Below, piece by piece: positions 6,515-8,866 of a stretch of 50,768 bases of DNA (position 1 is its first letter; each line of letters starts with the position of its first letter). Location of the stretch: contig JBDRWI010000008.1 in the NCBI GenBank assembly GCA_039802265.1, positions 1 to 50,768 on the forward strand, read 5' to 3'. Source of the DNA: a candidate division WOR-3 bacterium. GTDB lineage: Bacteria; Hydrothermota; Tepidihabitantia; SM23-42; JAOAFX01. Under the pieces are notes generated by a model. That model searched no databases. It was given only the letters and a program-made list of their open reading frames with translations, and was not told the DNA's origin. The position numbers and the translations under genes were made by a program.

Positions 6515-8143
<1,629 letters not shown>

Positions 8144-8154
8144 TCACTCCTTTT

Positions 8155-8448
8155 TTACTTCTCCTTCTGAACAATTCCCAAGACATCATCTTCGCGGATA
8201 ATCAGATATTCCTTATCTTCTATCTTTACCTCAGTTCCGGCATACTTCCCGAAGAGAATAATATCCCCCTTCTTGACATCCAGCGGAATCCGATTACCTT
8301 TTTCATCCTTCTTTCCATCCCCGACCTCTATTACCTTACCCTGTTGAGGTTTTTCCTTTGCCGTGTCAGGGATGATTATACCGCCTTTCTTTACCTCTTC
8401 TTCAATTCTTTCCACAAGAATATGATCATGAAGCGGTTTTATTTTCAT
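8155..8448 (-). CDS. groS: Co-chaperonin GroES
   Basis: KIKPLHD...[24 protein letters not shown] upstream. Confidence 0.99.
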
Positions 8449-8515: not shown

Positions 8516-8589
8516 TGGGCGAAACCCGACTTGAACGGGTGACCTTCTGCTTGTAAGGCAGACGCTCTCGCCATCTGAGCTATTCGCCC
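8516..8589 (-). tRNA. tRNA-Val(TAC), CCA not encoded
   Basis: Reverse complement GGGCGAATAGCTCAGATGGCGAGAGCGTCTGCCTTACAAGCAGAAGGTCACCCGTTCAAGTCGGGTTTCGCCCA folds as a cloverleaf with anticodon TAC. Confidence 0.96.
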
Positions 8590-8601: not shown

Positions 8602-8660
8602 ATTATATCCAAAAGTTTAGCAAAGTCAATATTTGACTTTTTTAAAAAATCGAGTATAAT
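8602..8660. promoter_or_regulatory. Back-to-back sigma70-type promoters (tRNA-Val/groESL leftward; ncRNA rightward)
   Basis: Minus strand: TTGACT(8624-8629)-16-TATAAT(8602-8607). Plus strand: TTGACT(8633-8638)-16-TATAAT(8655-8660). Confidence 0.8.
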
Positions 8661-8665
8661 TAGAT

Positions 8666-8753
8666 GGCTCTGTTAGAACCTCTGTATCCGTAGTTAAATA
8701 CCCGTACTCCCTCCTACGGGTTTAAAGATACAGATGAGTAATCTAACAGGGCC
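8666..8753 (+). ncRNA. Putative structured small RNA, family unassigned
   Basis: Nested stems GGCTCTGTTAGA/TCTAACAGGGCC (12 bp, one G-U), TCTGTATC/GATACAGA (8 bp) and ACCCGTA/TACGGGT (7 bp), apical loop CTCCCTCC. Starts 5 nt after a consensus -10 box; no ORF follows on this strand. Confidence 0.7.
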
Positions 8754-8866
8754 CCATAATTTTATTGAGTCAGAGTGATTAAATCATGGATTAAACGGAT
8801 AAAAAGCACAAACCTCAAGGCACGCCCTCAAAAACGACTATTTAACTTCAAAAATTTCTAAACGAA

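Follow-up and report, generated by a model that had tools for sequence, protein, structure and literature searches.

The locus and its promoter

What is transcribed from a strong promoter that faces DNA without a protein-coding gene? The question is raised by an intergenic region of G000, the genome of a candidate division WOR-3 bacterium that holds the window (the whole stretch of 50,768 nt analyzed here); other G and L numbers denote genomes and loci of relatives. The preliminary description had noted a consensus promoter pointing into an ORF-free region and an RNA that would begin at the same offset as the leaderless start codons, and both observations held. The sigma-70-type promoter TTGACT-16-TATAAT (-35 box at 8633..8638 and -10 box at 8655..8660, + strand) follows the consensus at 11 of 12 positions, and the ORF list of the window contains no frame of 50 aa or more overlapping the small RNA. 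About one third of the strong sigma-70 promoters of G000 have an ATG 5-7 nt after the -10 box (48 at offset 5, 31 at 6 and 26 at 7 among 332 sites), and 162 of the 332 have none within 14 nt. Since offset 5 is the commonest ATG position, G8666, which is 5 nt past the -10 box, is the likely transcript start (predicted at or beside this base). Among 21 members of the RNA family, 18 carry TTGAC[AT]-16/17-TATAAT, all with an offset of 5-7 nt, and the absences correspond to a contig end (one member) and a divergent type (two members).

The structured core is 88 nt long (8666..8753, + strand; 83-88 nt in homologues) and is followed by (A/C)CA and a U-rich tail (8754..8766, +). The CCA described after the stem is present in this genome but is not conserved: seven of the 21 members have CCA and 14 have ACA. 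In 20/21 members the tail holds 6-8 T per 10 nt; in the exception (L059), a separate hairpin with a T run comes after the RNA. Rod and U-rich tail probably act as the RNA's own terminator. A leader peptide was considered and rejected, as the possible 9-codon frame is not conserved (ATG in 7/21 members, stops variable). Judged by sequence only, the RNA shares with C-rich-loop trans-acting sRNAs an own promoter and end and the absence of coding capacity.

On the minus strand the small RNA has two conserved neighbours, tRNA-Val(UAC) (8516..8589) and a gene that we take to be groES (8155..8448), with groEL (6515-8140) next. Their divergent promoter (8602..8629, -), which serves tRNA-Val and probably groES-groEL too, is as good as the small-RNA promoter and stands back to back with it. 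As had been anticipated, homologues were found beside tRNA-Val/groES in related genomes, namely in genera g1 and g4, where the order is groEL-groES-tRNA-Val, the RNA, and then either a gene in convergent orientation or another tRNA gene, which has a promoter to itself. No same-strand protein gene lies under the small-RNA promoter: the next gene runs convergently in G000 and G001, and in genus g4 it is that separately transcribed tRNA; thus, with no mRNA following in cis in g1 and g4, the RNA should act in trans.

Several further features of the region were recorded. The spacer of the tRNA-Val/groES promoter contains a word, AAAGTTTAG (+ strand, with variants), that is conserved across the order (window 8602-8629 (-) and 12 other loci) and is kept also in genomes without the small RNA. 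A search of the window for CIRCE-like sites had no result, so the word could be a conserved part of the promoter or else serve as an operator. In genus g4 a tRNA(CAU)-hypothetical-DHH-small GTPase block directly follows the RNA, and in several g4 genomes the variable spacer just 3' of it is filled with short heptamer-like units in tandem (AAATTCC / AATCCGC type; L003, L004 and L006). Public contigs depart from the window sequence right after the RNA tail (8765-8767); as read from these alignments, the downstream spacer varies between close strains and the small RNA does not. One raw RNA run, of which ~12% was read, gave 0 reads anywhere in the window, tRNA and groES included. Two "metatranscriptomic" contig sets are probably DNA; one carries the locus, with another sequence directly beyond 8767, and the other is gapped across the small RNA.

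A covarying rod with a fixed open loop

Folding bore out the three-helix rod with an exposed loop that had been proposed for this RNA. Region 8666-8756 reaches -38.5 kcal/mol (z -6.16), with 0/200 shuffles as stable, and forms a 12-bp terminal helix (5' arm 8666..8677, pairing with 8742-8753), an 8-bp middle helix (5' arm 8681..8688, pairing with 8727-8734) and a 6-7-bp apical hairpin (8700..8721), all given on the + strand. The hairpin displays the loop CUCCCUCC (8707..8714, +), the proposed seed, which is fully open in the prediction. RNAalifold recovered the same fold from the alignment.

Over 20 distinct sequences, 98.1% of cells were paired and 9/27 pairs changed on both sides; this alignment was fitted to the model, and its shuffles, none of which (0/500) reached such covariation, ignore kinship. 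Slid controls were 32-41% paired. The two-sided changes, which include 4/8 pairs of the middle helix and, in the divergent subgroup, two pairs of the apical hairpin, fall in about five separate lineages (alignment read by eye); the first 13 sequences alone gave a weak signal of one pair. The loop itself is fixed, being CUCCCUCC in 19/20 distinct sequences and CCCCCUCC in the remaining one. A covarying apical stem with only the loop fixed is typical of pairing seeds, and the RNA has in common with C-rich-loop sRNAs a conserved single-stranded C-rich seed on a covarying stem. Identity of ten relatives to G000 is 76-94% within the RNA versus 38-50% over the next 90 nt.

The alternative pairing CCGUAG/CUACGG is possible in this genome, as had been pointed out; as a conserved element it was rejected, with the CCGUAG arm present in 1/21 members and the switch costing 7 kcal/mol. 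Folding energy alone makes no choice between strands. G-U pairs are frequent, and every one of them fits the plus strand; this orientation, the promoter direction and the absence of a CsrA find contradict a minus-strand RNA with a GGA loop (CsrA-type).

Distribution

A DNA search of 40 relatives found the small RNA in 13 genomes, and a covariance model added G002, which brings the count to 14 of the 15 genomes of the family; the 15th is 67% complete and has no RNA beside its tRNA-Val. Every carrier has one locus per genome, which answers the earlier concern that the sequence might be a multi-copy mobile repeat, and a MITE/REP-type repeat was rejected on the same ground, there being no dispersed copies. 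Pattern scans yielded 9 members among 17 metagenome stretches and 2 members among the at least 114 stretches listed GTDB-wide, and no member among the viral matches listed (at least 120 stretches). No plasmid or phage match to the small RNA was found.

Outside the family, model R2 with strict filters matched 0/83 other genomes of the class, and 0/80 of the remaining 140 phylum genomes in a search that had no positive control. A core pattern run over 271 genomes of the phylum matched 12 times outside the family, in 9 genomes; this equals the level of the reversed control, and ten of these loci, scored with the model, showed no match at the motif. Among 33 other genomes of the order, two weak hits appeared in the sister family (G034, 33.8 bits; G038, 25.5 bits). 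GC-rich DNA that had been chosen for containing the loop produced a chance match of 29 bits, in the range of these two hits, and the G034 spacer aligns by eye with a G230 spacer that has no repeat arms; because of both observations G034 and G038 were not counted as members. At G038 (L352:1501-1583), a hairpin with an 8-bp stem and a UUCCCUCC loop stands upstream of a degraded DUF302/SHOCT-like gene pair with a strong SD; the hairpin, at its non-significant 25.5 bits, is a possible distant relative or cis anti-SD element.

Relation to known RNA classes

Rfam 15 contains no match to the small RNA at gathering level (best over the RNA 15.7 bits, E 6.9), as the preliminary description had asked to be checked, and none for three homologues and the two weak hits. 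Its statement that SRP domain IV and tRNA arms are lacking also held. A tRNA or tRNA-like identity was rejected (no ARAGORN call; CCA in a minority of members, no discriminator base), and so was bacterial SRP RNA (no RF00169/RF01854 match at the small RNA, the true, large SRP RNA being on another contig, C45:12968-13252). For a bacterial Y RNA, the partner Ro60/TROVE (PF05731) was not found in G000, which is 89% complete, and none was seen beside the RNA; Hfq and CsrA were likewise not found in that assembly. Cuckoo RNA was rejected as an identity, this being one rod rather than 2-4 adjacent hairpins and its loop CUCCCUCC rather than CCUCCUCCC. We found no paper on this RNA and no sRNA described for this uncultured lineage. 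Conservation, covariation, a conserved promoter, single copy and the lack of an Rfam match together support the original claim of a new conserved ncRNA: the small RNA is a real, uncatalogued structured RNA gene, restricted to one family of uncultured bacteria.

That the RNA is a minimal 6S-like decoy of RNA polymerase, one of the two functions first suggested for it, is not supported when it is set against the genome's own 6S RNA, and we consider this extremely unlikely. Like 6S RNA (RF00013), the small RNA is an unbranched rod with an asymmetric internal loop and a free-standing gene, and some bacteria carry two 6S RNAs. But a canonical 6S RNA of 154 nt (76 bits) is encoded elsewhere in G000 (C38:14679-14832), the small RNA has about half the usual length (88 nt vs about 150-190 nt), the 6S model gave no match at E up to 10, and the helix from internal loop to tip spans only 6-7 bp, where a 6S RNA requires a long one that imitates the -35 region.

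Closer parallels are offered by sRNAs with C-rich loops. RepG of Helicobacter pylori and CJnc190 of Campylobacter jejuni are described as carrying one C/U-rich loop, for which pairing with G-rich ribosome-binding regions has been proposed, and as repressing by covering such sites; RepG is also a separately standing gene transcribed at mature size (PMC8687705). The cuckoo family (RSs0680/CcsR and NfeR1; Alphaproteobacteria) is reported to have a fixed C-rich anti-SD-like loop on covarying stems (PMC4615179; bioRxiv 2025.11.14.688489), the stems varying around the fixed loop (PMC4615179), and NfeR1 is described as repressing translation via G-rich ribosome-binding sites (bioRxiv 2025.11.14.688489). 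For RoxS/RsaE and FsrA (Bacillota), C-rich regions are said to pair with SD regions of central-metabolism mRNAs, with translation repression by RoxS and FsrA via G-rich ribosome-binding sites (PMC8216469), and the weak pgk lead given below would be of this kind. The differences are equally clear: to RepG and CJnc190 no Rfam or sequence relationship was found, and the small RNA is an unbranched three-helix rod; cuckoo RNAs are given as 2-4 adjacent hairpins each with CCUCCUCCC (PMC4615179), whereas here a single CUCCCUCC sits at the rod tip in another phylum; and RoxS/RsaE and FsrA are given several C-rich regions and another fold (PMC8216469), the small RNA having no Rfam match. By analogy, the small RNA probably works like RepG/CJnc190, RoxS/FsrA, NfeR1 and the cuckoo RNAs but belongs to none of them.

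Loop pairing with ribosome-binding sites

The loop CUCCCUCC contains CCUCC, the complement of an SD word that is common in the genome (469 GGAGG-ATG sites); the 3' end of the organism's 16S rRNA is not in the assembly. That the genome mixes leaderless and SD-led mRNAs, as had been stated, agrees with a count of about 260 leaderless-like and 888 SD-led starts among 1751 genes from a crude gene caller. The loop takes part in 479 of the 484 pairings predicted below -8 kcal/mol, and mean pairing energies fall in the order SD6 (-8.8), SD5 (-8.0), SD4 (-6.7), no SD (-4.7) and leaderless (-4.0), although such a preference for SD-led over leaderless starts is expected of any CCUCC loop. With accessibility, a typical pairing is 5-6 bp with a median of -4.1 kcal/mol.

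On the other hand, no G000 start stands out as a target. The full 8-nt loop complement at the SD position occurs at no G000 start (0 observed, 0.7 expected), GGAGGGRG before ATG is no commoner in RNA-bearing genomes than in reversed controls or the sister family, and loop-complementary starts show neither enrichment nor avoidance. The best G000 "target", a cysteine desulfurase, was discarded as a miscalled start within a coding motif, and a strict RNase III motif, written from recall, found nothing in G000. The suggested pairing with GGAGG sites therefore stands in part: the loop is the principal open and conserved segment and prefers SD-led starts in silico, but no enrichment of loop-complementary starts accompanies it.

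The lack of a standout target would fit diffuse action, in which an abundant RNA weakly covers many SD sites and shifts translation to leaderless mRNAs. The near-consensus promoter, the coexistence of both start classes and the general preference of the loop for SD-led starts speak for such a titrator; a typical pairing of 5-6 bp is probably too weak to compete with the 30S subunit, and sister families do without the RNA, so that we consider it unlikely.

A second possibility is that a protein (e.g., a ribosomal or cold-shock protein, or an anti-SD-recognising nuclease) reads the rod and its pyrimidine loop, with the RNA serving as decoy or scaffold and any mRNA pairing being incidental. Invariant letters outside the loop, located in helix 1 (UU-G/CUAA), helix 2 and the A-rich internal loop, favour this, and loop pairing gives no account of these invariant bases in stems and internal loops; neither is there a clear conserved mRNA target. 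Yet no protein gene is a conserved neighbour, what lies downstream changing from genus to genus; searches for Ro60, CsrA and Hfq had no result; and the apical stem covaries around its fixed loop in the manner of a pairing seed. We regard the protein-binding role as rather unlikely.

A candidate target: pgk

Among five genomes whose starts were compared (with a crude ORF filter, and with three G010 pattern matches left out), pgk was the only gene with a 7-nt loop complement at its start in more than one. The match lies at the gap-pgk junction and hinges on a synonymous Arg codon, which is AGG in 10/11 genomes of g1/g4 and in 0/15 other genomes with Arg at that position; elsewhere in the gap and pgk genes AGG and AGA are near even, and such a codon split occurs at 2/486 variable synonymous sites, the pgk site included. 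The choice of pgk was post hoc, the AGG change amounts to one event on the tree, and AGG at this position also strengthens the SD, which is an alternative cause. Moreover, G002 and G005 have the RNA but an AGA codon, and the loop variant of G014 makes a mismatch with the pgk start without compensation. Pairing energies with accessibility were -4.5 to -11.6 with the RNA versus 0 to -9.9 without it, the two ranges overlapping, and gap-pgk is missing from the G000 assembly. With evidence both ways, pgk, the only recurring candidate, is a weak lead.

A divergent subgroup at heavy-metal efflux genes

In G002 and the metagenome locus L099, which form the divergent subgroup, the RNA has no sigma-70 promoter and stands directly upstream of tolC-cusB-cusA-like genes (G002) or of a tolC-like gene (L099). 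One tree places G002, with weak support, as sister to g1+g4; a second leaves its position unresolved. A motif, GTAAC[CT]-15/16-[CT]GTC, which we take to be an ECF-type promoter, stands ahead of the RNA at both loci and again ~10 nt 5' of the start codon of the efflux gene; at L099 the copies were identified by eye. At least four further genomes have the motif in front of the efflux gene, and the 4.6 Mb of G000 contain it 4 times. Loci with the motif ~10 nt before a tolC-like start are L387, L395, L398, L399, L401 and L099; the spacing suggests leaderless ECF-driven transcription of the efflux cassettes. Upstream at L099 lies a gene for a DUF5667 protein with a cysteine-rich tail (8 cysteines within the last 45 residues), possibly a metal-sensing anti-sigma factor. 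G002 has the tRNA(CAU)-hypothetical-DHH-small GTPase block in inverted orientation at a distance of about 12 kb, beyond the efflux genes (L350:3136-8908).

Could the RNA be a cis-acting leader of such an operon, i.e., a metal-sensing switch or attenuator left elsewhere as an orphan? Its position in G002 and L099 would allow this, and the two weak sister-family hits are also at cassette-type genes. However, those hits score in the range of the GC-rich chance match, a separate terminator and a second ECF-like promoter part the RNA from the leaderless tolC in G002, the RNA is absent at 53 other cassette loci and 9 P-II-like loci, and G000 keeps it without a detectable efflux cassette. A cis leader is very unlikely, and the same absences led us to reject a link between RNA and efflux cassette as a general rule.

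A palindromic repeat and the possible origin of the RNA

At its core, GUUAG/CUAAY, the terminal helix is similar to a palindromic repeat of wide occurrence, CCCGTTAG...CTAACGGG, and in the divergent members the terminal arms, (G)CCCCGTTAG/CTAACGGGG, are the repeat core itself. The repeat has 6, 5 and 1 copies in three of five relatives tested and occurs in 23 viral stretches, versus 1 and 5 for two rearranged control arms; G000 holds one degenerate copy (C6:48151-48208). Copies with CCCCGTTAGA/TCTAACGGGG arms were seen at L068-L072, at L588-L610 and on C6 of G000. We found no description of the repeat in the literature, and the main text of PMC11893778 contains no GTTAG/CTAAC. At the cusA/P-II spacer of G034 (L060:1501-1577), repeat arms surround a sequence that is armless in G230 (L369), a pattern that, judged by eye, would fit arms gained by a pre-existing spacer.

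This REP-like repeat and the RNA share the terminal-helix core, exactly so in divergent members; they differ in that the repeat is multi-copy with interiors unrelated to each other, while the RNA occurs once per genome, is preceded by a promoter and shows covariation in its interior. Derivation of the small RNA from the palindromic repeat is possible on this likeness. A stronger version, in which the locus is a fixed relic of the repeat, retained for its action as DNA hairpin, terminator or insulator and without function as free RNA, would explain the shared arms; its single copy, the plus-strand sense of its G-U pairs, a dedicated promoter held at a fixed distance, the covarying inner helices and the target-site duplication not seen by eye all argue against it, and make it quite improbable.

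Proposed mode of action and its meaning

The evidence above makes it very probable that the small RNA is transcribed and functional as RNA. The best explanation, to which we give a probability of roughly 0.55, is by analogy with RepG, CJnc190, cuckoo and RoxS a probably Hfq-independent sRNA whose C-rich loop blocks G-rich ribosome-binding sites. The RNA would be a free-standing, trans-acting sRNA of about 90-100 nt made from its own housekeeping promoter, whose stable rod would protect it and display the C-rich loop without Hfq. On some mRNAs the loop would form 6-8 bp with the G-rich ribosome-binding site (as many as about 11 should the closing pairs melt) and thereby block binding of the 30S subunit; leaderless mRNAs, having no such site, would be spared. 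Members of the divergent subgroup would share an ECF-like promoter with the heavy-metal efflux operon, and their RNA would be induced by stress.

A broader account would join these elements: an RNA born from the repeat as a mobile element, driven in one branch by a housekeeping promoter and in another by an ECF promoter that responds to metal stress, would act as a free anti-Shine-Dalgarno decoy that broadly damps SD-led mRNAs (that of the glycolytic gene pgk among them) while leaderless ones, including the ECF-driven efflux genes, escape. We hold this to be improbable; if true, it would amount to an RNA switch between two modes of translation initiation. Broad discrimination between SD-led and leaderless mRNAs, the least supported part, would likewise make the RNA a selector of initiation mode.

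With its clean covariation and mappable promoter, the RNA family is ready for curation. If silencing by the C-rich loop is true, this mode of control would extend to a lineage in which no Hfq was found, and the promoter switch together with the repeat-like terminal stem may offer a traceable case of the rise of a new sRNA.
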